A stretch of 64,000 nucleotides of DNA from an uncultured Candidatus Saccharibacteria bacterium (lineage in GTDB: Bacteria > Patescibacteriota > Minisyncoccia > Phycocordibacterales > UBA12088). The notes beneath the pieces are model-generated. The model was not told where the DNA came from. It was given only the letters and a program-made list of their open reading frames with translations, and did not search any database. Positions 13,986 to 54,890 of this stretch are shown here, piece after piece. Location of the stretch: positions 138,813 to 202,812 of the forward strand of contig CAZMLK010000002.1 of assembly GCA_964567265.1 (NCBI GenBank), read 5' to 3'. Each line of letters opens with the position of its first letter. Position 1 is the stretch's first letter. The position numbers and the translations under genes were made by a program.

Positions 13986-14624
13986 CTAATCAAGCAATTT
14001 GAAGCTTTTCCAGATCCGATCAAGATCTGCCATCGGAATTCCGCGTGTCGTTATGCGGTAAAAATATCCTTTCCAAATGAAAAGTGTTGTGCGCTCCTCA
14101 TCTTGCTCAGCCACGGTATGTACGGGATCTTTGGACATGTCGAACTTCCTCGTCAACGCAGGAACGCCAGAAACGGTCGTCTGCCCGATAAGATAATTTT
14201 CTTCATTGCCAACCCAGTGGTGGTATTCATCCGACAGTGATCCAGTCGCTGCTTGGGAGTTTACGGTAAGGATCCTCTCCTTCCCGGTCATATCATTTGC
14301 AATGAGCGCATAGGATGTATATTGATTCGGGTCGCCTTCGCCTACTAACATGCCGGAGGGGCGAAATTCCATATCGGAAGGCGCGTCAACGGAAAAGTGA
14401 AGAAAGTCATTTTTGTAGCGAACCCATTCACTAGAGAGCTGGGTGGATGACCCAGTGAATGATGTCGGAAGTTCATCTGCGCGTAATGTCCGACTTCCTT
14501 GCATACTCACACTCTGTGGAGCCTTACCAGAGTTCATTTTTGCAGCGAAATAAATAATACCCCCTGCGATAACGAGGGCCCCGAGAAAAATAAATGTAGC
14601 GACGCTGAGGTTTGATTTTTTCAT
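13986..14624 (-). CDS. hypothetical N-terminally anchored protein (low-GC island gene 1)
   Basis: MKKSNLSVATFIFLGALVIAGGIIYFAA anchor; about 45% GC versus about 60% background. Confidence 0.5.
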   Translation of the reverse strand: MKKSNLSVATFIFLGALVIAGGIIYFAAKMNSGKAPQSVSMQGSRTLRADELPTSFTGSSTQLSSEWVRYKNDFLHFSVDAPSDMEFRPSGMLVGEGDPNQYTSYALIANDMTGKERILTVNSQAATGSLSDEYHHWVGNEENYLIGQTTVSGVPALTRKFDMSKDPVHTVAEQDEERTTLFIWKGYFYRITTRGIPMADLDRIWKSFKLLD

Positions 14625-14692
14625 GTGGATGCAATGATAGCAATAAGAAATTTTGGATTTAAAAAAAGTAGTTGCCCTATCTTACATGGAAC

Positions 14693-15553
14693 TTAATGCA
14701 ATTCGACATGTCCAAATGGTGATTTTTCCACTCTAACGCAAGGCAATGTCTGGGCAATTTCGTTGATCGTTTCCAATTGCGCTTGGCTCTTGGATGGGGG
14801 CCATGCTCCCTCAATCGACAATGCCCATTCACCCACATCCTCCAAAACATAAGTGTAAGTCACTATTTTTGCACCTCGTTTCTCGTGGATGATGATGGTT
14901 TGCGTCGTAACCTCTTTGATGGAGTCAACCAACTGCTGAACGACCTCACTGCGTGCATCTGGTGGAATTTCAAAAATAATGCTTGGCGCGTCAGCAGTTG
15001 TTGCTCGGTCGTAGTAGGAAGTCACTACTGCAATATTCCTTGAGTCAATTTTCTTACTGGTGATTGATTTCCAGATTGCAATAATTATTCCGTCTCGCAC
15101 TATTTCCCACATTGCTGAATCTATATCAGCTTGAATGTGAGCAATGGCCCAGTCTTTTATAGGAATGAGTATTGTTATGGCGTGGGAAGCGAAGTCCACC
15201 AGACCTATCATTTCTGCGCTCACCCCTCCTCCATATCCATGGGTATGCCAATTTAGCTCGTATTGATACTTCCCATCTATGTGTTCTTTGGCATGCTCAA
15301 CAGCCGCATCATCCACAATTGTCACCTCCAACCCCGTTTGTTTTGAGGTCAATTCAGAGACTAAGGGTGTAAGTAGGGAGTTCTCGATTTTTATGCGAAG
15401 TTTCAAGTCCCCGTTGCCAATAATGTTCTGGGCCGATTCTCTTGCCGCCTCAAGTTCTGCGTAATATTTTTGTGAAAAATCAAACACTCTAGCAGATTTT
15501 CGCTGTTCTAGGATACGGAGTAAAAAATTTTCGAGTTGTTCAAAAATTCGCAT
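14693..15553 (-). CDS. hypothetical cytoplasmic protein (low-GC island gene 2), contains NWHTHGYGGG motif
   Basis: 286 aa, no TM, no recognisable family; lower GC than surroundings. Confidence 0.5.
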   Translation of the reverse strand: MRIFEQLENFLLRILEQRKSARVFDFSQKYYAELEAARESAQNIIGNGDLKLRIKIENSLLTPLVSELTSKQTGLEVTIVDDAAVEHAKEHIDGKYQYELNWHTHGYGGGVSAEMIGLVDFASHAITILIPIKDWAIAHIQADIDSAMWEIVRDGIIIAIWKSITSKKIDSRNIAVVTSYYDRATTADAPSIIFEIPPDARSEVVQQLVDSIKEVTTQTIIIHEKRGAKIVTYTYVLEDVGEWALSIEGAWPPSKSQAQLETINEIAQTLPCVRVEKSPFGHVELH

Positions 15554-41087: not shown

Positions 41088-41095
41088 TTTCACAA

Positions 41096-41141
41096 AATCA
41101 AAACAAAACCACGCCGGCTCCGCCGGCGGGGTTTTGTTTTG
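41096..41141. terminator. bidirectional terminator aaaacaaaaccacgccggctccgccggcggggttttgtttt after rpsG
   Basis: GC stem with conserved AAAACAAAA/TTTTGTTTT arms. Confidence 0.55.
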
Positions 41142-41154
41142 AGACGCCAATCAA

Positions 41155-41994
41155 TTACTCTGCCTCCGCATGCACCTCGTGGATGCGCTCGACGTCATCA
41201 TGGAGCCGTGAGAGCCGCGGCCCGATCCGATCGACGAGCTCGCTTCCAAATACCACAAAGGGGACGAGATCCTTGCTCTGGAACAGTGTTCCGTTCTCGA
41301 TCACGTACATGCGCTTGTCGCGCATCTCGATCGAGTAGGCGCTCCCGCGATCGATGAGGAATTCCATGATCTCCGGCGTGAGGATTTCGAGTGCCTCGAT
41401 CTCCAGATCTTCAGCGACGTACAGGTTGAACCGCTTCGCGAATCCCGCATCCAGGGTCAGCGATTTGTGATAGGTGTCTGCAAGCGCCTCTCCCTCAAAA
41501 AACCGATTTTCCTCGAGGATGAGATCAGGCAGGGGACCACTGAAATCGAAGCAGCAGACGGTATAGAAATGGCTCTGGCTGTTCTTCCCGCTCCCGGTGG
41601 TGTACTGGAAATGGAACAGCTCGAAGGCAGTCGCCCCGTATTCACCGCTCACCACGTTCGCGATTGCACGGGAGTGACCCTTCTTAAAGAGCATGCTCGC
41701 GTAGGAATCGTCGAGGTCAGAGTACGACGCGTACTCAAAGCCGCACGCGTCGGCAAAACGGCGCATGGACTCTGCCTGGTACCGGCTCGCCCGGTAGCTC
41801 GCGTAGAGGAAGAGGGGAAGGAGGACTCCGTACAGGAACACGTTCAGCGGCTGGCCAAGCCCGAACAGCGAAAGGAAGAGTGCAATGACTCCGAGCACGA
41901 TCCCGATAAGCGCGATCTTCCGGAGTTCTCCGACCACCATGGCACGTGTCATATTCGCGGGGAATGATGCGCCGGGTTTGGGGCCGATTGGCAT
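41155..41994 (-). CDS. hypothetical membrane protein (inserted between rpsG and fusA)
   Basis: Two N-terminal TM helices, then soluble domain (YTTGSGKNSQSHFYTVCCFDFSGPLP); no family recognised. Confidence 0.5.
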   Translation of the reverse strand: MPIGPKPGASFPANMTRAMVVGELRKIALIGIVLGVIALFLSLFGLGQPLNVFLYGVLLPLFLYASYRASRYQAESMRRFADACGFEYASYSDLDDSYASMLFKKGHSRAIANVVSGEYGATAFELFHFQYTTGSGKNSQSHFYTVCCFDFSGPLPDLILEENRFFEGEALADTYHKSLTLDAGFAKRFNLYVAEDLEIEALEILTPEIMEFLIDRGSAYSIEMRDKRMYVIENGTLFQSKDLVPFVVFGSELVDRIGPRLSRLHDDVERIHEVHAEAE

Positions 41995-42040
41995 AGATAG
42001 CGTCAGTATAGGCTAATTGCGGATTTGGTAAATAAAGAAA

Positions 42041-42068
42041 GCGCCGGCCCGAATTTTCGGGCCGGCGC
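42041..42068 (-). terminator. hairpin gcgccggcccgaattttcgggccggcgc plus T-run on the minus strand
   Basis: Located 6 nt downstream of the stop of ORF 42074-42544. Confidence 0.5.
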
Positions 42069-42073
42069 GGCGG

Positions 42074-42544
42074 CTAGCAGGTGCCAGAACAGATGTACAT
42101 GGCCATAAGTCTGTGGGACGTGCGCAAGGCGCGCTCACCGATTGCTGTCCCAGGATAGCGCTCGGAAAGATCCTTATAATACTTTGCCAGCTTCCAGAGC
42201 GACCTTCGCGCTTCTCCAAGGTGAACATAGAGGTCGATCTCAGGGAGACCGGCGTCGCCATTTCTCCCGTGTGGATCCCTCCAGGTTGTCGTTCTCAGGT
42301 GGATCGGTTTCGGCATCCCCCCGCGCCAAAAATAGAAATCGATGCGACGGCGGAGCAGGCTTTGGAGTGGACTTACGATGACCACTGTTTCCGGGGGTGC
42401 CGCCACCTTCGCGAGGAGGTCTTTGCAGAGAGCGATTCCCAAGCCGTCCATTTTGTCTAAGGATGCGGACTGGGCCCTCCATGTAATCAAATCGAGCTTG
42501 GGGCGATGATATCCCCTGAGGGAGGTGGTTGAGTTCGATGACAC
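42074..42544 (-). CDS. hypothetical protein
   Basis: ORF with its own terminator; no motif recognised. Confidence 0.4.
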   Translation of the reverse strand: MSSNSTTSLRGYHRPKLDLITWRAQSASLDKMDGLGIALCKDLLAKVAAPPETVVIVSPLQSLLRRRIDFYFWRGGMPKPIHLRTTTWRDPHGRNGDAGLPEIDLYVHLGEARRSLWKLAKYYKDLSERYPGTAIGERALRTSHRLMAMYICSGTC

Positions 42545-42605
42545 GCATGCGGCCTTCTCCTGATGCTCTGAGGTCTGTGAAGCAATCTCTCACAGCTCCT
42601 CTATA

Positions 42606-42634
42606 TTGTCTATTTCCCGAATTTGATTTATAGT
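42606..42634 (+). promoter_or_regulatory. candidate fusA promoter TTGTCT-N17-TATAGT
   Basis: 65 nt upstream of fusA. Confidence 0.35.
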
Positions 42635-42699
42635 CCTCCTACAAGCGCAAAGCGCCTTTTTGTTTCTTATAAGCCGCCGCCTCATCATTTAGCACCACT

Positions 42700-44853: not shown

Positions 44854-44870
44854 CTCTGAATCAAACAACA

Positions 44871-44907
44871 CAAAGCCGGCGCGAGCTTTGCTCGCGCCGG
44901 CTTTGTT
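44871..44907 (+). terminator. terminator aaagccggcgcgagctttgctcgcgccggcttt + TGTTTT
   Basis: 13-bp GC stem after the fusA stop. Confidence 0.6.
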
Positions 44908-44971
44908 TTCACCCTCCATACAAAAAACACCCCGGAAATTGGCTGAAAGCCAATTTCCGGGGTGCAAAGAC

Positions 44972-45406
44972 TCAAGCAATAATCCGCTTCCGCACCCTCT
45001 CAAAGTAGAGAAGAGAGGCGAGGAAAGTGGCGATGGTGGGGAGCATTGTTGCACCGATTATAAATCCAATCGGATCCTGTATTGCTTCTGTCCGAGTAGC
45101 CACGTTTACCCAGCTCAGGTGAAGCATTATGGATCCCACCGCAGCCACCAGCAAACTTAAGGCGATCTGCAGGAGAAAGGAGTCGCCCTCAACGACATAG
45201 TCAGCGATGACCAATGACGCGAAGACCAAGATCGTCACAATGAGGACTGTCGAGATAGCCCCTCCGCCGAGCTGCCACCCGGGCCGGTCCAAGACCACGG
45301 CCATGGTTTCTGGGGCACTGTTTCTGAGAAAGAGCACCAGCATCGTCAAGCAGGTGAGTATGCTGGCGATTAACGAGCGCACAAAAGCACCTCTCATTTT
45401 CGGCAT
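44972..45406 (-). CDS. hypothetical 4-TM membrane protein (inserted between fusA and tuf)
   Basis: Four hydrophobic helices; no motif recognised. Confidence 0.45.
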   Translation of the reverse strand: MPKMRGAFVRSLIASILTCLTMLVLFLRNSAPETMAVVLDRPGWQLGGGAISTVLIVTILVFASLVIADYVVEGDSFLLQIALSLLVAAVGSIMLHLSWVNVATRTEAIQDPIGFIIGATMLPTIATFLASLLYFERVRKRIIA

Positions 45407-45506
45407 CCTTCCGTCGGTTCAGTACTCGTGCCAGCATGCCGGCGTCTCCGCGACGAATCAAGCCGTCCTCCGGGAGGGTACCGAAGCCTTCACCCCTGCC
45501 CGTTTA

Positions 45507-45535
45507 TTGACGTACCCCTTGCTTTCCGCTATTAT
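45507..45535 (+). promoter_or_regulatory. tuf promoter TTGACG-N17-TATTAT
   Basis: Near-consensus sigma-70 promoter 175 nt upstream of tuf; purine-rich leader. Confidence 0.45.
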
Positions 45536-45709
45536 CTCGCTACCGCAGTTGTTGCGTCCTTTTTTGTCATTGGACCTTGTCATTTGGAGGGCCTTGGGAG
45601 AAAGGGAGGTAGAAAAGGTGGTAGGTGTTCATTATAAATCGCTACCGTCTCGAATTGAGCCCTGGTTCTCGCGCGCTCATACGGGACAGTAGCCAAACAA
45701 GAAAATCAT

Positions 45710-46909
45710 ATGGCAGGTACATTCGATCGCTCGAAGCCCCATGTCAACGTCGGCACCATCGGCCACGTCGACCACGGCAAGACGACCCTCACAGCCGGCA
45801 TCCTCCACGTGCTCCACATGGCGGGGAATGGCTTTGGCGCATCCGAGAAGGGTGTTGACCAGATTGACAACGCGCCTGAAGAAAAGGCACGTGGTATTAC
45901 GATTTCGCTCTCGCACTCTGAGTACGAGACCCCGAACCGTCACTACGCGCACATCGACGCGCCAGGTCACGCTGACTACATCAAGAACATGATCACGGGC
46001 GCAGCCCAGATGGACGGTGCGATCCTCGTGGTCGCAGCGACCGACGGCATGATGCCCCAGACGCGCGAACACGTCCTCCTTGCAAAGCAGGTTGGCGTGC
46101 CTCGCATGATCGTCTTCATCAACAAGGTGGACATGGTCGAAGACCAGGACCTCGTTGACCTCGTCGAAGAGGAAATCCGCGACCTTCTCACGAAGCAGGG
46201 TTTTGATGGCGCAAACGCACCGATCATTCGCGGTTCAGGCCTCAAGGCCCTCGAATCGAAGTCGGTTGACGATCCGTACGCTCAGAAGATCATCGAACTC
46301 GCAAAGGCACTCGATGAATACATCCCGATGCCGGTTCGCGAGACTGAGAAGCCGTTCCTCATGCCGATCGAAGACATCTTCTCGATCGAAGGACGCGGTA
46401 CCGTCGTTACCGGACGCATCGAGCGCGGCCAGGTGAAGGTGGGCGAGGATGTTGAAATCATTGGCCTCCAGCCAACCGCGAAGACGACCATCACGGGTAT
46501 CGAAATGTTCAACAAGCAGCTTGATAGCGGTATGGCAGGCGACAACGCCGGCATCCTCCTCCGCGGAACCAAGAAGGAAGACGTGCACCGCGGACAGGTC
46601 CTCGCAAAGACGGGATCAGTTACGCCGCACACTGAATTCGAGGCAGAAGCATACATCCTCAAGAAGGAGGAAGGAGGCCGCCACACGCCGTTCTTCACCG
46701 GTTACAAGCCGCAGTTCTATGTCCGCACCACGGACGTGACGGGCGACGTGACCCTCCCAGAAGGTGTTGAAATGGTCATGCCAGGCGACACCACGAAGTT
46801 CAAGGTGAAGCTCGTCGCACCAATCGCGCTCGAAGAGCAGACCCGTTTCGCCATCCGCGAGGGCGGCAAGACGGTCGGTGCAGGCGTCGTCACCAAGGTG
46901 ATCGCCTAA
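45710..46909 (+). CDS. tuf: elongation factor Tu
   Basis: [22 protein letters not shown]; 399 aa. Confidence 0.95.
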
Positions 46910-46958
46910 CCCACAAAGTACTTACCAAAACCACTACTAGGACCTTTGACAACACGAT

Positions 46959-47339
46959 ATGGCAACGAAAGAAACTACAGAAGCTCCGAAGCGCGCCAAG
47001 CGCGCGGCGAAAGCTGTCAAAGGAGTTGAAGCCGTCTCCAAGCTCCGCATTCGCGTGCGCGCCTATGAGCACAAGCTCCTCGACGCATCCGTAAAGCAGA
47101 TCATGGACACCGCGCTTCGCTTCGATGCCACCATCGTCGGTCCGATCCCGCTTCCGACGGAAATCAAGAAGTACACGGTGAACCGCGCCGCATTCGTCTA
47201 CAAAGACGCGCGAGAACAATTTGAAATGCGAGTGCACAAGCGCCTCATCGACATCCTGAATCCGTCCGCGAAAGTCATCGAGTCCCTGACCAACCTCACC
47301 CTCCCATCCGGCGTCAACATCGACGTCAAGATGGTTTAG
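46959..47339 (+). CDS. rpsJ: 30S ribosomal protein S10 (with about 25-aa basic N-terminal extension)
   Basis: KLRIRVRAYEHKLLDASVKQIMDTA...RLIDILNPSAKVIESLTNLTLPSGVNIDVKMV. Confidence 0.9.
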   Translation: MATKETTEAPKRAKRAAKAVKGVEAVSKLRIRVRAYEHKLLDASVKQIMDTALRFDATIVGPIPLPTEIKKYTVNRAAFVYKDAREQFEMRVHKRLIDILNPSAKVIESLTNLTLPSGVNIDVKMV

Positions 47340-47384
47340 GTAAAAGGAGTCAAACAAAAAATCCCCTCACGGGGATTTTTTGTT
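47319..47384 (+). repeat. direct repeat, left copy (last 21 nt of rpsJ + stop + terminator)
   Basis: atcgacgtcaagatggtttaggtaaaaggagtcaaacaaaaaatcccctcacggggattttttgtt. Confidence 0.75.
47352..47384 (+). terminator. rpsJ terminator aaacaaaaaatcccc-tcac-ggggattttttgtt
   Basis: Hairpin 13 nt after the rpsJ stop; this is the part duplicated at 48221-48270. Confidence 0.55.
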
Positions 47385-47426
47385 ACACTATGGAGGATTT
47401 CTTTTACATACTAACCGTTCAATCTC

Positions 47427-48131
47427 ATGTCAGAAGGATTCCACGAGGCGAGTGCAGAAAAATCACCCAAGGAGGCATTTACAGAAAAATTCCTTGATCA
47501 GCCTTACGGGAACCTGACAGAAGAACAGCAGGCGATGCTTCGTACGCATGTTGAGGGGCGGGAGGGTCCATGGACAACGGTGCCGAACATATTCGATGTA
47601 ACTTGGGATGATGAAGCGAAACGGATTGTCATCGAGCTGTCTGAGGGAGGAAGCCAAACGTTTATATACGACCCCTTCGTGCCGAAGGTGCCACAAGCTG
47701 CACCACCTGTAGAATCAAGAGGAGACTCCGAGCCGAGTGGCGCAGTAAAAGTCGGGGAAGAACCCGTCTCAGTTGTGACTCAGAGCAACGAGGCGTTGCG
47801 CACCGTGATCCCTGGCGGGGAATGGATCGATTTGTCTGGGAAAAAGATCGTAACCGATCAGGCTGGCTTGTATTCAGGCAAAGAACTGGTCATGAAAACG
47901 GGTGCCGCGAACACGATGAATTTTGTCGGCAAATATAATTTCCACGAGGGAACGATGATCGTTGGAGGGCCCGATGGCTCACTGCACGCGGCTCCGTACT
48001 CGGCAGAGAGAGAGGAGGCGCTCAAAAGCGCAGGGTACAAGCAAGAGTTCGAGCTGGTGCCGAGTTTAACAGGTCATCAAAGGTTCGAAGACGAGGAGAC
48101 CCAGAGGGTATTTGAAGCGCTAAAAAACTAG
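47427..48131 (+). CDS. hypothetical soluble protein (island gene a)
   Basis: 234 aa, no TM, no recognisable motif; lies between the two direct repeats. Confidence 0.5.
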   Translation: MSEGFHEASAEKSPKEAFTEKFLDQPYGNLTEEQQAMLRTHVEGREGPWTTVPNIFDVTWDDEAKRIVIELSEGGSQTFIYDPFVPKVPQAAPPVESRGDSEPSGAVKVGEEPVSVVTQSNEALRTVIPGGEWIDLSGKKIVTDQAGLYSGKELVMKTGAANTMNFVGKYNFHEGTMIVGGPDGSLHAAPYSAEREEALKSAGYKQEFELVPSLTGHQRFEDEETQRVFEALKN

Positions 48132-48191
48132 CTTCACTCTTCCTAGAAGTCAGGCGCTTCACGTGCGGGTGTTCTGTGTCACGGTACCGGA

Positions 48192-48270
48192 ATCGACGTC
48201 AAGATGGTCTAGGCGAAGGAGTCAAACAAAGAATCCCCCCAAGATAATTTCTCTAGGGGATTTTTTGTTT
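48192..48270 (+). repeat. direct repeat, right copy (degenerate rpsJ 3' end ...GIDVKMV* + terminator-like hairpin with enlarged loop)
   Basis: atcgacgtcaagatggtctaggcgaaggagtcaaacaaagaatcccc[ccaagataatttctcta]ggggattttttgtttttt; about 85% identity to the left copy outside the loop insertion. Confidence 0.75.
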
Positions 48271-48401
48271 TTTAAGAAAATAGAGATTCCGCAGAAAGGG
48301 AGGATCGGATCAAATAGAGACATTGACAAATCTATTATATGTGGTATATAATACCGCCAGATAAAGTCCTTCAATCATCGCGCTTCGGACGGAGAAAACC
48401 C

Positions 48402-48866
48402 ATGCGCCTTTCCTTGATTCTGGCCTTCGTACTCGGTCTCCAGAGCGGTTTTGTCGGCAATTCTGCTCACGCAGAGATTGCGACACCCGCCGATCTGCCC
48501 GCAGACTATGCTACCTGGCAAACGTTGCATGAACTCTCTTGTGAACCGCTGTCGATCAAAGTGTATTCGACAATCACGCCGGATGCCGAGATGGAGCTTC
48601 TGACCTACACCCTCGGCAAGAATCTGGTCGCGTACTCGATGTCATCATCCACAAATGCTGGCAAGGTAATCACCGACCATGGCCTCTACAAAGGGGAATG
48701 GAAATCGGTCGATGGCACCGATGCCAATAAGGAGAAATCGGAGCGTCTCGTGAATGCCGCCCTTCTCGATAACGGTGGACAGCCTGCTCTCGTTGCGTTC
48801 GGCCAGTGTAAGCAGGAGCTTGTGCGTAAAATCATAAAGGCTTTCTTTGCACCACTTGGCAGGTAA
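48402..48866 (+). CDS. hypothetical secreted protein (island gene b)
   Basis: Signal peptide MRLSLILAFVLGLQSGFVGNSAHA; start trimmed from ORF-track 48339. Confidence 0.45.
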   Translation: MRLSLILAFVLGLQSGFVGNSAHAEIATPADLPADYATWQTLHELSCEPLSIKVYSTITPDAEMELLTYTLGKNLVAYSMSSSTNAGKVITDHGLYKGEWKSVDGTDANKEKSERLVNAALLDNGGQPALVAFGQCKQELVRKIIKAFFAPLGR

Positions 48867-48912
48867 AACGGAGCCCATTGCATCAGTGTGTGTTCCTCGC
48901 CGTTGATACCCG

Positions 48913-48950
48913 CCCCCAGTCCACGCATGGACTGGGGGCTTCATTTTTTT
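48913..48950 (+). terminator. terminator cccccagtcca-cgc-atggactggggg + TTCATTTTTTT
   Basis: 11-bp stem followed by T7. Confidence 0.55.
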
Positions 48951-49155
48951 GCCTCATGGGGATTTTTTGATTTTTGTTGAAAATAGAAAAAGCCGAAATG
49001 CGCTGTTTCGGCTTTCTTCCTCGTGCATGAGGGTCACGGGTTCGGTGGTTAGTATAGTCTGCCACGAACAGGCATTGGTACAGCTTCTCATTGGACGTAG
49101 CGTTGCTAAAGCAAAAGAAAATCGCTGCGGGCCCGATGGTCCGCAGCGACATCCG

Positions 49156-49803
49156 TCATGCGCTCTGAGGGAATGAGGGCGTCAGAGTGGTGCGACGTCC
49201 CCAGAGATACATACAGAGGAGGATAAGTCCCGAAACGACGAGCAGGATCCCGCCAATTGCAGGGATGAGCCATGCTTGGCGCGTTCCGTCCGAATAGAAA
49301 TCGAACGTGAGATTTTCTCGGTCAACGCGCACTTTCCCCACGTAGGTGAAAAAAGTGTAGTCAGGAAGTGGCACTGCCGCGCTGATGTAGGTCGATAGGC
49401 CGTTCTCCAGCCTGACCAATGCGGTATATTCGACCACCCCATGGAGACCTTTGCCGTCCATGCTCCCGTCGTCCCGCCACCCATTCTGGATTACCACGAA
49501 TGTTGGAACGCTATTCCCCGTTCGTTGCTGAAAATCCTGCATTGGCAATTCTGCCGAAGGCGTACCGTTCTCGAAGGAAAGCACGCTGAGGGTCGTTGAA
49601 TTGTTCGGCTTCCACAACTCGACGTGTATCGGATCAGGCATAGGACTTGCAGTCCATCCAATCAGCATCCATGCACCGAGGGCAAAAATGCCCAGAGGCC
49701 ATCGATAGGTTTTCCACGCACATTTCAGTATCTTTCGAAACGGCTTTCTCTTCGAATTACCAGTCATCTTCCATGCTCCATGGATAGAGTGAACCCACGC
49801 CAC
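49156..49803 (-). CDS. hypothetical membrane protein (island gene c; TM at each end, extracytoplasmic middle)
   Basis: LGIFALGAWMLIGW and AIGGILLVVSGLILLCMYLW helices; hairpin aagccgaaatgcgctgtttcggctt downstream. Confidence 0.45.
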   Translation of the reverse strand: MAWVHSIHGAWKMTGNSKRKPFRKILKCAWKTYRWPLGIFALGAWMLIGWTASPMPDPIHVELWKPNNSTTLSVLSFENGTPSAELPMQDFQQRTGNSVPTFVVIQNGWRDDGSMDGKGLHGVVEYTALVRLENGLSTYISAAVPLPDYTFFTYVGKVRVDRENLTFDFYSDGTRQAWLIPAIGGILLVVSGLILLCMYLWGRRTTLTPSFPQSA

Positions 49804-49915
49804 CGTACCATCCGATCTTCAAAATGTAAATAAATATCTTCGCCCTCTGTGCGTAGACCGAGGGCTCCGTCGTTCCATGGTTCCTGAAAGCCGTTTGGTG
49901 CTATGCTACGGAGTC

Positions 49916-50377
49916 ATGAAGCAGAAGCTGAAAGCGCTATTCAAGTTCGCCTCCCCGGCCATCCTGCTGGTATTCCGGACGTACTACTTCATCTTCCGCC
50001 CGAAGGGGGAGAGCGTGAAGTGCGTGATCCGGAACGGTGGCAACATCCTCCTCATCCGCAATTCGTACGGCGCGAAGTTCTGGACGCTTCCCGGTGGCGG
50101 CGTGAAGTCGAGCGAGACCCTGGAACAGGCGGCCGTCCGCGAAGCACATGAGGAAGTCGGCATCGAGATCCGCGAGCAGGACCTCACCAAGCACGGCAAG
50201 GTGCGCTACCTCCTCGACTTCCGCCGCTCCACGGTCTGGGTGTTCAGCGTCACGGTGCCGTCTCCCGCATTCCACCTTCATGGCGTCGAGATCGAGGAAG
50301 CGAAGTGGTTTCCCGAGAACGCAATCCCCGGCATGCGCTCGCATCTCCTGGAACGTTTCCTCGATTTGGCGAAATAA
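49916..50377 (+). CDS. Nudix hydrolase (island gene d)
   Basis: Nudix box GGGVKSSETLEQAAVREAHEEVGI (Gx5Ex7REUxEExGU); start trimmed to MKQKLK. Confidence 0.75.
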   Translation: MKQKLKALFKFASPAILLVFRTYYFIFRPKGESVKCVIRNGGNILLIRNSYGAKFWTLPGGGVKSSETLEQAAVREAHEEVGIEIREQDLTKHGKVRYLLDFRRSTVWVFSVTVPSPAFHLHGVEIEEAKWFPENAIPGMRSHLLERFLDLAK

Positions 50378-50433
50378 CCGACCGATTTTAGAGTCGGTAT
50401 TGACTATGAAATTAAATTCGTCATGCTGGCACA

Positions 50434-51069
50434 ATGACTAGGTCCACAGAGGAATCACTTGAAATCATCTCAAACCAATTTGTCGTGAAGCGTCGGTTTA
50501 CCACGGGTACATTCAACCTTATATTGGGTGCGGTACTAGGCGCCACTTTGACTTTTTTAGTAGGAGCTATTAATTCTTACATCTCCAACCAAACCTTACG
50601 TCAAGCGGTTGCAAAGAGCATCTACATTGAAATTGAGCATAATAAAATTTTTTTAAATAGCTCTGTATCTGATTTAAACAGCGCAGTTTTAGATTGGAAA
50701 GGCAACAAAGGAAATAAATTAAATATGCAAGTATTCGCCCTGCATAGAGAAGACTTCTACCAAATTTATCTCCAAGATTTAACTCTATTAGATAAAAACA
50801 CTCTAGATGAAACCTACGAATTTTACGGAAGACTTAGGACCATTGATTACCTAACAAAATTAATCACTGATGATTTTGATCTCTATTACAGAAATGAAAA
50901 TCTAATTTCTAGAGCTGATATCTTGTCCCGACTAATGGAATTACAGCAGGATGTGGATGAGGCGCTTCGGAATGCTGACAAAATCCAAAGAGATTTAATT
51001 ACTAAATATGATGTTAACAGTGTTCAGAGTTCCTGTAATCCAACCAATTGTCTAACAAACTCTTGGTAA
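50434..51069 (+). CDS. hypothetical protein with N-terminal TM, very low GC (about 38%) (island gene e)
   Basis: Asn/Ile/Leu/Tyr-rich, AT-rich codons, in strong contrast to the about 60% GC host. Confidence 0.5.
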   Translation: MTRSTEESLEIISNQFVVKRRFTTGTFNLILGAVLGATLTFLVGAINSYISNQTLRQAVAKSIYIEIEHNKIFLNSSVSDLNSAVLDWKGNKGNKLNMQVFALHREDFYQIYLQDLTLLDKNTLDETYEFYGRLRTIDYLTKLITDDFDLYYRNENLISRADILSRLMELQQDVDEALRNADKIQRDLITKYDVNSVQSSCNPTNCLTNSW

Positions 51070-51075
51070 AGAGAG

Positions 51076-51104
51076 TTGCATCCTTTCAGACCTTCCTGTA
51101 TAGT
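51076..51104 (+). promoter_or_regulatory. candidate rplC-operon promoter TTGCAT-N17-TATAGT
   Basis: 145-nt leader follows with nested hairpins (gtccatt...aatggac enclosing gtccc-aata-gggac). Confidence 0.4.
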
Positions 51105-51249
51105 CCATTTACTCTCGTTCTGAGAGATTCTATGTCCCAATAGGGACCAATGGACTGAAATCCGCAAGGGATTCGTCCTTGGCGGTATTTTTAATACCAA
51201 AAACGATCAAAAGACGGTAGAAATCTTCAAAAAACCTATAAAACTCAAC

Positions 51250-51861
51250 GTGAAATTCATCCTCGGCACAAAAGAAGAAATGACGCAGGTCTTCGATGAG
51301 AAGGGCGTCGTCCACGCAGGAACCATCCTCAATGCAGGTCCTTTGACCGTCACCAAGGTCCTCACCAAGGACTCTGACGGATATGAGGCAGTCCAGGTCG
51401 GATACGGCGTCCGCAAGGAAAAGCATGCATCGAAGCCAGTCATGGGCCAGACCAAGGCGTTCGGTATCTTCCGGACCCTCAAGGAGTTCCGCGATGTCGA
51501 GGGCATGACCGCAGGCGACAAGATCGATGTCTCGGTCTTTGCCCCAGGCGACACCATCCAGGTCTCAGCGATCTCGAAGGGTAAGGGCTTCCAGGGCGTC
51601 GTGAAGCGTCATGGTTTCCATGGCGGTCCGCGTTCGCACGGCCAGAAGCACTCCGAGCGCTCCCCGGGTTCTATCGGCGGCGGCGCGCGTGCCGGAGGCC
51701 GTGTCGCGAAGGGCATGAAAATGGGTGGCCGCATGGGTACTGACCGCGTCACGGTCAAGAATCTCAAGGTGCTCGTTGTCGATGCTGCCGCGAACACCAT
51801 CATCGTGTCAGGAGCCGTTCCGGGTCGTCGCGGAACGCTCGTTGAAGTAGTTTCAAAATAA
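51250..51861 (+). CDS. rplC: 50S ribosomal protein L3 (GTG start)
   Basis: MKFILGTKEEMTQVFDEKG... Confidence 0.9.
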   Translation: MKFILGTKEEMTQVFDEKGVVHAGTILNAGPLTVTKVLTKDSDGYEAVQVGYGVRKEKHASKPVMGQTKAFGIFRTLKEFRDVEGMTAGDKIDVSVFAPGDTIQVSAISKGKGFQGVVKRHGFHGGPRSHGQKHSERSPGSIGGGARAGGRVAKGMKMGGRMGTDRVTVKNLKVLVVDAAANTIIVSGAVPGRRGTLVEVVSK

Positions 51862-53841: not shown

Positions 53842-53859
53842 GATCAAGACACGGGAAGA

Positions 53860-53899
53860 AACAAAAGGGCCGCGCGAACGCGCGGCCCTTTTGTTTTTG
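53860..53899 (+). terminator. terminator aaacaaaagggccgcgcgaacgcgcggcccttttgttttt after rplB
   Basis: 13-bp GC stem plus TTTTGTTTTT. Confidence 0.65.
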
Positions 53900-53911
53900 A
53901 TTGGAAATGAT

Positions 53912-53957
53912 CATAAAAAGATGAAGCCGCCGGCGTGCGTACGTGCGCCGGCGGCTC
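53912..53957 (-). terminator. hairpin aagccgccggcg-tgcgtacgtg-cgccggcggctctt with T-run on the minus strand
   Basis: Downstream of minus-strand ORF 53981-54289. Confidence 0.45.
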
Positions 53958-53980
53958 TTCAATTACACCCGGAAGGGGAG

Positions 53981-54289
53981 CTATCTTTTGCCGTTCTCGG
54001 CCGATAGCAGAAACGCCGTCTTGTCGTTGCGGACGGGACGCGCAGTCATCCTGTTGCCTGTAAGGGCTGCTAGGAGACGCGCAATCTGCTGGAGCTGGCC
54101 TTCGTCGGCGATCGTCACATCAGAACGCATTCCATCCACCAAAAGGTAGATTTGATTATTGCCCCTCATGATGAGCAGGGTGCCGCCGGGAGCCGAGACA
54201 ACGTCCCCCTCTTGGGGTGCTGTGGATCCGAGCTCACCATTGCATCTCAGTTCACATGCCACAATTAGTACCTTCCTGCAGTTTTCCAA
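53981..54289 (-). CDS. hypothetical 102-aa protein (inserted between rplB and rpsS)
   Basis: ORF with its own terminator; LLIMRGNNQIYLLVDG; possibly a small alpha/beta regulatory (roadblock-like) fold, uncertain. Confidence 0.45.
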   Translation of the reverse strand: MENCRKVLIVACELRCNGELGSTAPQEGDVVSAPGGTLLIMRGNNQIYLLVDGMRSDVTIADEGQLQQIARLLAALTGNRMTARPVRNDKTAFLLSAENGKR

Positions 54290-54861
54290 GTGACATTAAG
54301 AAGCAATCTGACGATTTGTCAAATTTCTTCTTTAGGGAAGCCCTAAAAAGATACGCCCCCGAGCTGCTCTGCAGCTCGGGGTACGTGTGTTCAGTAGGGG
54401 AGGGTCATTTCTCCCTGACGCGGCATCTGTGGTTCAAGAGGGACGGAGGACTTGAGCTCCTTCAGCTTGCAAACAAGCCTGAACGCCCTACCTATTTCCT
54501 GCGCCATGCGGTACTTCTGCTTGCCCTTCAGCAATATCGGCGTTTCCAAATAGAAGCTTGCTTCTGCCCTGGACCAGAAACAACGTCGTACCCGTTTCCG
54601 GCCAAGTATCCTGATGGCAACCGCAATTGCCACGGCTTCGAAGTAAGGACGCTCGACAACATAAAGCCCTTTGCACCGGATGAGGAGAAACTCGCAATTG
54701 GTCGTGGCATCTCGGCACCCAAAGTCGCGAACGCTCACGCGCTTGGGGGAAAACGCCTTGGTCATCCACTTTCCTCCAGAAAAGGCGGTAAAGAACAGCC
54801 GATATTAAAAACTCTATACGCCAATCTGTCAAGGGTAAGGAAAGAGGAAAGCGCCTTTTGT

Positions 54862-54890
54862 TTGACAGAAACCCCCGTTTTGCGTACTAT
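54862..54890 (+). promoter_or_regulatory. rpsS-operon promoter TTGACA-N17-TACTAT
   Basis: Consensus -35, 17-nt spacer, near-consensus -10, 40 nt upstream of rpsS. Confidence 0.5.

Follow-up and report, generated by a model that had tools for sequence, protein, structure and literature searches.

The 64,000-nucleotide (nt) stretch analyzed here (the window), which is part of contig CAZMLK010000002.1 of an uncultured bacterium of the Patescibacteria, contains an open reading frame (ORF) of low guanine-plus-cytosine (GC) content that we refer to as gene X (Table 1). We conclude that X is probably a horizontally acquired single-gene islet, rich in adenine plus thymine (AT), that lies in a recombination hotspot at the junction of the ribosomal protein genes rpsJ (S10) and rplC (L3) and that encodes an accessory membrane protein. 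X closes an island inserted between these two genes, at the rplC-proximal edge where an earlier note, made from the DNA letters alone, had placed it. Islets of deviant composition within hotspots bordered by core genes are in themselves a known phenomenon. New are (i) the position of the hotspot inside the rpsJ-rplC pair, (ii) the protein family, which is tiny, undescribed, and without a curated model, and (iii) the recurrence of X at the boundary of L3 genes across two domains of life.

The composition of X is grossly atypical for its host. Its GC content is 35.7% (41, 32, and 34% at codon positions 1, 2, and 3, respectively), and that of the whole window is 56.8%. The earlier note had estimated about 38% in a genome of roughly 60%; both figures were too high, but the deviation on which the note had staked its case holds, since no other 636-nt stretch of the window has a GC content as low as that of X (z = -5.1 versus all sliding windows). 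The codon usage was said to differ from that of the neighboring genes, with AT-rich third positions, and the comparison with ribosomal genes proposed in the note bears this out: the GC content at third positions (GC3) of X is 0.34 and its codon adaptation index (CAI; reference, ribosomal and elongation factor genes) is 0.21, both of which are the lowest values among 78 greedily chosen ORFs (mean GC3, 0.67, with a standard deviation of 0.10; mean CAI, 0.50). The encoded protein is enriched in Leu (13.3%), Asn (8.5%), and Ile (7.6%), as claimed, and not notably in Lys and Tyr (4.7% each), which the note had also listed. X is furthermore a genuine, intact protein-coding gene. At the base composition of the tract, a stop codon is expected every 14 to 15 codons, and the probability of 211 open codons is ~3e-7. 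The ratio of nonsynonymous to synonymous substitution rates (dN/dS) between the closest family pair for which DNA is available is 0.39.

The AT-rich tract is ~870 bp long and extends from ~50378, just after the stop codon of a gene for a NUDIX hydrolase, to 51249, directly in front of the rplC start codon, and it includes both spacers around X. GC content shifts sharply at both of its ends. The left spacer contains a small hairpin (50381-50398, in the minus-strand listing of the terminator scan), and neither a Shine-Dalgarno motif nor a consensus promoter was recognized between 50378 and 50433. The right spacer has a hairpin that resembles a terminator, with a T-run behind it, at ~51157-51200 (terminator scan, 51165-51181 and 51173-51185; RNA fold z = -2.1). 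No sigma-70 consensus promoter was recognized for X or rplC, no Rfam family was found in or around the islet, and the sole transfer RNA of the window is far from X. Within X, a GC-rich in-frame 21-mer is the best match of the gene anywhere in the window (score, 18; next best, 13) and is antisense to a conserved segment of rpsJ; 200 codon shuffles of X all stayed below this score (shuffle maximum, 17). Since X and rpsJ are both on the plus strand, their mRNAs could pair at the 21-mer. No counterpart of it was found in the loci of homologues.

The hydropathy scan and the predicted structure agree with the N-terminal transmembrane (TM) helix and the subsequent helical domain that the earlier note had proposed. 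The TM segment has a hydropathy of 2.03; the next best segment reaches 0.34, so that X has no second hydrophobic segment. With the sequence of X alone, AlphaFold provided a model with a predicted local distance difference test score (pLDDT) of 35, and the model used here is therefore the alignment-based one, obtained with AlphaFold2 (AF2) and 19 aligned sequences (pLDDT, 80.8; predicted template modeling score [pTM], 0.68). In this model, one helix (residues 6-89) runs through the TM segment and is followed by two short and two long helices (121-152 and 160-192). The model thus shows a predicted four-helix bundle anchored by one N-terminal TM helix. According to the positive-inside rule, the two subfamilies described below have opposite topologies, and X is ambiguous (+3 versus +2). 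No catalytic motif is recognizable.

The fold matches of X are generic four-helix bundles, and the top ones are designed proteins. Two known families were considered and rejected. (i) Sensors with a 4HB_MCP domain are composed of a first TM helix, a four-helix bundle, a second TM helix, and then a cytoplasmic signaling module. Compared with Tar (1lih), NarQ (5iji), and MCP2201 (9kup), X shares 5 to 10% identity and has no second TM helix, no HAMP, and no kinase or signaling output domain; there was no Pfam match, and the chain stops after the helix formed by residues 160-192. The likeness in fold is generic. (ii) The membrane-associated helical bundles of DUF3829 (4yjw and 3rh3) share 11% identity with X and differ from it in anchoring and taxonomic range, and X does not match PF12889.

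The homology search recommended in the note revealed distant relatives only. A word-indexed search of 5.8 billion proteins retrieved X itself as the sole match, whereas exhaustive phmmer searches of 1.84 billion representatives retrieved 10 relatives (E values of 1.9e-8 to 7e-4; 21 to 28% identity) that align over residues ~24-199 of X. Profile searches enlarged the family to ~25 clusters. In the family alignment, the TM segment is conserved, and behind it come a helix with the signature 'IA.ALY.(D/E)I', a central block 'Y..Y..KD(I/L)..(F/L)D....DLY.FY', and a C-terminal 'KY.VN' motif, with conserved Tyr, Asp, and Ala positions. Two subfamilies were joined by hhalign with a probability of 91.6%, and the window protein bridges both. 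No curated family was matched: the best Pfam hit of X was VTT_dom (E = 0.15), and 11 family members had no Pfam family in common; NCBIfam gave no match to X, the best PHROG match had an E value of 0.21, and the best PADLOC match, to Cas5, was at chance level (E = 0.015). There was no match to PDB sequences. In tblastn searches with X against INPHARED phages and PLSDB plasmids, nothing was found at an E value of ≤1; scanning of the IMG/VR viral contigs with two sub-alignments revealed no family member, and the best viral fold match in BFVD (E = 0.05) was not significant. The family is very rare (~25 clusters among 5.8 billion proteins); being present in both small-genome bacteria and an archaeon, it is a possible tracer of gene flow between these groups.

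Inspection of the family in other genomes supports a foreign origin of X, in agreement with the horizontal acquisition claimed in the note: its homologues, at most 28% identical, are scattered over unrelated bacteria and an archaeon, and nearly all of them are AT-rich and adjacent to transposase or toxin-antitoxin genes. The GC content of the family genes is 25 to 39% at host GC contents of 29 to 61%, and none of the members in GC-rich hosts resembles its host in composition. Several contexts are informative. (i) In the archaeal locus L083, which has genes of S4e, L24, and RNase P p29 type, X (33% GC; flanks, 58%) is divergent and lies 372 nt from the first gene of a Methyltrn_RNA_3-L3-L4-L23-L2-S19 operon; on its other side are three HicAB pairs and a Mutator-type transposase. 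(ii) In the groundwater bacterium of L170, X (39% GC; flanks, ~61%) is on the same strand as rplC and ~390 nt upstream of it. (iii) In L082, L13-S9 precedes X by 1.9 kb, and X adjoins DUF2283 and an IS200-like gene, and a homologue 87% identical to this copy is found in a different context in L085. In both of these loci, a short ORF upstream of X ends in the motif ERVFELYGLG.EEI.II, which may correspond to one at the C termini of restriction-methylases. (iv) In L168, X is located between hsp20 and dnaK. (v) In L084, L086, and L169, a conserved fragment of an rve_3/DDE transposase faces X in convergent orientation, and a Bro-N gene or a 1,335-aa PolA-type gene is near. (vi) In L087, X adjoins a SocA/Panacea domain gene. 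In subfamily B, a conserved ORF of ~60 aa with two TM helices is directly upstream of X (L083, 9727-9906; L086, 252-434; L169, 298-480; L175, 41-241), an arrangement that points to a membrane module of two genes. No such partner ORF accompanies the window copy, which is 56 nt from the NUDIX gene. Long-form members of the family, such as P0004, have a C-terminal 'G.YKK' domain of ~60 aa. Among the other members, P0023 (on a 26-kb contig) is close to the archaeal copy, and P0020 and P0021 (on contigs of 3.7 and 4.5 kb) belong to the cluster of the L170 copy. The islet borders of the window, L170, L083, L168, and L082 have no motif in common.

In L168, a perfect 17-nt inverted repeat (356-372, CGAAAGCGGGAATCCAG, and 1256-1272, CTGGATTCCCGCTTTCG) brackets X; no other locus shows such a repeat. 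These repeats could be the terminal repeats of a small mobile cassette.

In this clade, the rpsJ-rplC junction is a general insertion hotspot. Among GTDB representatives, the best matches of the window rplC are metagenome-assembled genomes (MAGs) of Paceibacteria/Kaiserbacteria-type Patescibacteria (57 to 71% identity), and in JGI metagenomes the best match has at most 69% identity. The spacing between rpsJ and rplC in relatives is usually 8 to 300 nt, and about one locus in five has 0.5 to 10 kb. Among the cargo of these inserts are a module with a ParE toxin, a diversity-generating retroelement that is complete, a sigma-region-4-like protein, and orphans. The Kaiserbacteria genome RIFCSPLOWO2_01_FULL_51_21 (50% GC) contains between the two genes a 35% GC gene (L005, 9049-9840) for a 263-aa protein that has a hydrophobic N-terminal region and a weak match to the C-terminal winged-helix domain of DUF6293 (E = 7e-4). 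This protein was rejected as a homologue of X (BLASTP E = 0.4; hhalign probability, 0.1%), so that here a second, separate AT-rich gene occupies the junction. No homologues of the island proteins of the window, X included, were found in 166 related rplC loci. X was also considered as a conserved member of the S10 operon, an idea that failed, since rpsJ and rplC are close together in most relatives and the inserts that others have at this junction are unrelated to X. In the literature, we found no description of insertions in the S10 operon of bacteria of the candidate phyla radiation. For phylogeny and binning, the str-S10 super-operon generally serves as an inviolate marker block; in Paceibacteria it is a site of gene turnover, and in the window it is split into separate transcription units. 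Since the rpsJ-rplC junction tolerates insertions, it is also a candidate site for genetic tools in Patescibacteria. The retroelement mentioned above, in the Nomurabacteria MAG L022 (1709-4518), consists of a target of Fib_succ_major/Lcl_C type, bAvd, and a reverse transcriptase.

Taken together, X has the atypical composition and codon usage as well as the patchy distribution of a horizontally acquired islet: it is absent from the 166 related rplC loci, and its homologues belong to a different lineage of bacteria, to AT-rich bacteria, and to an archaeon. It has neither the recombinase and flanking repeats of an integrative mobile element nor the viral or plasmid homologues of a phage or plasmid gene. 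The turnover of hotspots without mobility genes proceeds by recombination at the core genes that flank them (Oliveira et al. 2017, PMC5635113), and natural competence occurs in Patescibacteria (PMC10633639). By analogy, the islet (50378-51249) would have entered a Paceibacteria chromosome of ~57% GC by horizontal transfer, with homologous or homology-facilitated recombination at the conserved flanking genes as the likely route and natural transformation as a plausible preceding step. X may be expressed by read-through from the NUDIX gene or from an AT-rich promoter that was not recognized. The family would circulate in bacteria with small genomes and in one or more archaea, within or next to mobile DNA that carries transposases, toxin-antitoxin genes, and Bro-N.

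The window island resembles the hotspots described in PMC5635113 in being variable, in lying between highly conserved genes, in having cargo that is unrelated from lineage to lineage, and in lacking an integrase; in addition, its host phylum has naturally competent members (PMC10633639). It differs from them in that (i) it is inside the normally contiguous rpsJ-rplC pair and (ii) island gene 1 carries an att-like duplication of the 3' end of rpsJ.

A number of observations weigh against a horizontally acquired islet in a hotspot. There is no known donor or close homologue of X, the best one being 28% identical; searches of IMG/VR, INPHARED, and PLSDB revealed no family member, and PADLOC provided no significant match. 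Neither an integrase nor a transposase nor a flanking repeat was found to bound the islet. No relative is close enough to provide an empty site (rplC identity of ≤71% in GTDB and ≤69% in JGI metagenomes); with the nearest rplC relative at 71%, no empty-site or strain comparison is possible that could support the recent date that the note had given to the acquisition. Finally, no member in a GC-rich host has adopted the composition of that host, and the AT-rich copy is found at the L3 boundary in three genomes. The uniform AT-richness and the recurrence at L3, the latter of which the earlier note had missed, fit selection for AT-richness or a site-specific association as well, in place of a single recent transfer.

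With respect to function, a role in conflict, exclusion, or immunity, rather than in housekeeping, is tentatively the most likely one for this accessory membrane protein, although its probability is fairly low. In view of the missing viral, plasmid, and PADLOC matches, it is the neighborhood of the family genes that points to such a role. The more specific version, in which X is a single-gene membrane effector of abortive infection (Abi) or an exclusion protein against phage or foreign DNA, appears unlikely. It would agree with neighborhoods that are rich in toxin-antitoxin and insertion sequence genes, with the putative restriction-methylase motif upstream in L082 and L085, with the conserved two-TM ORF upstream in subfamily B, and with the low GC content and sporadic distribution of the family; against it stand the chance-level PADLOC match, the nonsignificant PHROG and viral fold matches, and the lack of a partner ORF in the window. 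Lactococcal Abi-type genes are small, have a lower GC content than their host, occur sporadically, are often membrane associated, and are found beside mobile elements. X would share these traits with Abi and exclusion genes and differs from them in that it has no sequence or profile similarity to them and no phage or plasmid copy was found.

The alternative that X-type genes are targeted to, or selectively kept at, the 5' boundary of L3 (rplC) is rather improbable. It is suggested by the 11 contexts with identifiable neighbors, in three of which (L170, L083, and the window, where X is 181 nt upstream of rplC on the same strand) an AT-rich copy is directly at the 5' boundary of an L3 gene or operon, all three in GC-rich genomes, namely, those of two bacteria and one archaeon. 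Excluding the discovery case, we estimate that 2 of 10 copies at an L3 boundary have a P value of ~2e-4 under random gene placement, and of ~0.02 if the rpsJ-rplC junction is one of a few dozen hotspots. The L170 copy (P0003) has the window protein as its best non-self relative, which hints at a shared history of the linkage between X and rplC; the L3 proteins of the two are only 44% identical. Further points in favor of this alternative are the location of a fourth copy 1.9 kb from L13-S9 and of a fifth between hsp20 and dnaK, as well as the fact that every member is AT-rich, none having drifted to host composition. On the other hand, none of the 166 other rplC loci that were inspected contains X, most family contexts are nonribosomal, no DNA motif is common to the spacers between X and rplC in L083, L170, and the window, the archaeal copy is divergent with a methyltransferase gene between X and L3, the sample is small, and the junction is a general hotspot with unrelated cargo. 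The link could take two forms. X may be a selfish hitch-hiker whose place ahead of an essential operon ensures its expression and shields it from deletion, and it perhaps supplies a promoter region or controls transcription of the operon, or it may be a membrane-anchored factor that is tied to the ribosome or works with translation at the membrane. The strongest statement, that X-type genes are persistently AT-rich cassettes in both domains that are tied specifically to the 5' edge of L3, we consider improbable; if true, low GC content would be a maintained property and not a sign of recent arrival. If the recurrence at L3 is real, it would point to an unrecognized means by which mobile genes take advantage of an essential operon.

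That an AT-rich fragment of another organism was joined into the contig during assembly is very improbable. The metagenomic source and the abrupt change in composition at both ends of the tract could raise this suspicion; however, the Logan contig SRR16481187_187164, an independent assembly, is 100% identical over positions 46703-51608 of the window (4,906 nt), which cover rpsJ, the entire island with the two junctions of the AT-rich tract, and the start of rplC and reach into tuf, and AT-rich homologues in GC-rich flanks recur in unrelated samples and assemblers. A chimera was therefore rejected, and the assembly of the window is sound across X. Least credible is that there is no gene and that the tract is an AT-rich promoter or leader of rplC with a chance open frame, a reading that would account for the position of the tract against the rplC start and for the need of rplC for a new promoter after the upstream terminators but that is effectively refuted by the improbability of the open frame, the full-length homologues with their conserved Tyr, Asp, and Ala, the confident alignment-based fold, and the dN/dS ratio within the family.

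Table 1. Positions of gene X, its parts, and the surrounding features in the window
Feature	Position	Strand	Description and basis
Gene X (low-GC ORF)	50434..51069	+	211 aa; ORF list, GC, CAI, homologues, AF2 model
Single TM helix of X	50518..50574	+	residues 29-47, LILGAVLGATLTFLVGAIN; hydropathy scan and AF2 model
GC-rich in-frame 21-mer in X	50947..50967	+	CAG GAT GTG GAT GAG GCG CTT; reverse complement (20/21) of rpsJ 47238-47258
Left spacer	50378..50433	+	56 nt, AT-rich, after NUDIX stop; sequence, 100-nt GC windows
Right spacer	51070..51249	+	180 nt, AT-rich, up to rplC GTG start; sequence
Island	47340..51249	.	3.9 kb, five ORFs, between rpsJ and rplC
Island gene 1	47427-48131	+	234 aa; ORF list
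Island gene 2	48339-48866	+	175 aa; ORF list
Island ORF	49156-49803	-	215 aa; ORF list
NUDIX hydrolase	49877-50377	+	Pfam
rpsJ (S10)	46959..47339	+	Pfam PF00338, 2.8e-31
rplC (L3)	51250..51861	+	GTG start, first gene past island; Pfam PF00297
Direct repeat, copy 1	47319..47389	+	last 21 nt of rpsJ and its terminator; repeat search, blastn-short E = 1.9e-9 versus copy 2
Direct repeat, copy 2	48192..48275	+	after island gene 1; ~90% identity over 48-52 nt, hairpin loop expanded
Direct repeat, partial third copy	48947-48987		after island gene 2; repeat search

The island is preceded by rpsL, rpsG, fusA, tuf, and rpsJ and followed by rplC, rplD, rplB, and rpsS, as assigned by Pfam, and the NUDIX hydrolase is the only island protein with a family match in Pfam or NCBIfam. 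rpsJ has its own bidirectional terminator hairpin (inverted repeat, 47348-47389), and a strong terminator follows island gene 2 (48912-48939); together with the terminator-like hairpin after X, these signals cut the S10 operon into separate transcription units. The 873-bp cassette with the 234-aa ORF looks like an att-flanked insertion at the 3' end of rpsJ, to judge from its repeats. Island gene 1 is similar to integrative elements of the att type in that a repeat of ~50 nt comprises the last 21 nt of rpsJ and the terminator. Unlike such elements, the island has no integrase or recombinase detectable with Pfam or NCBIfam, and the islet of X has no such repeat. The rpsJ-end repeat was not found in relatives with inserts at the rpsJ-rplC junction. 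Upstream of island gene 2 is a perfect sigma-70 consensus (TTGACA-18-TATAAT, 48323-48352), and its product probably starts at MRLSLILAF..., with an N terminus resembling a signal peptide, and not at the listed ATG at 48339.

Other gaps in this region also contain additional DNA. In the rpsG-fusA gap (41088-42699), orphan ORFs of 279 and 156 aa lie on the minus strand, and the fusA-tuf gap (44854-45709) has orphan ORFs of 90 and 161 aa. The rplB-rpsS gap (53842-54857) measures ~1 kb, and a promoter-like sequence (TTGACA-17-TACTAT, 54862-54890) is located just before rpsS. The spacing between rplB and rpsS is 0.4 to 5 kb in nearly all Paceibacteria-type relatives examined, compared with ~10 to 100 nt in other phyla. 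A milder low-GC patch is present at 13986-15553, where two minus-strand ORFs of 212 aa (47% GC) and 286 aa (44% GC) have CAI values of 0.29 to 0.35. Neither ORF matched a Pfam or NCBIfam family, and the patch is probably another acquired islet.

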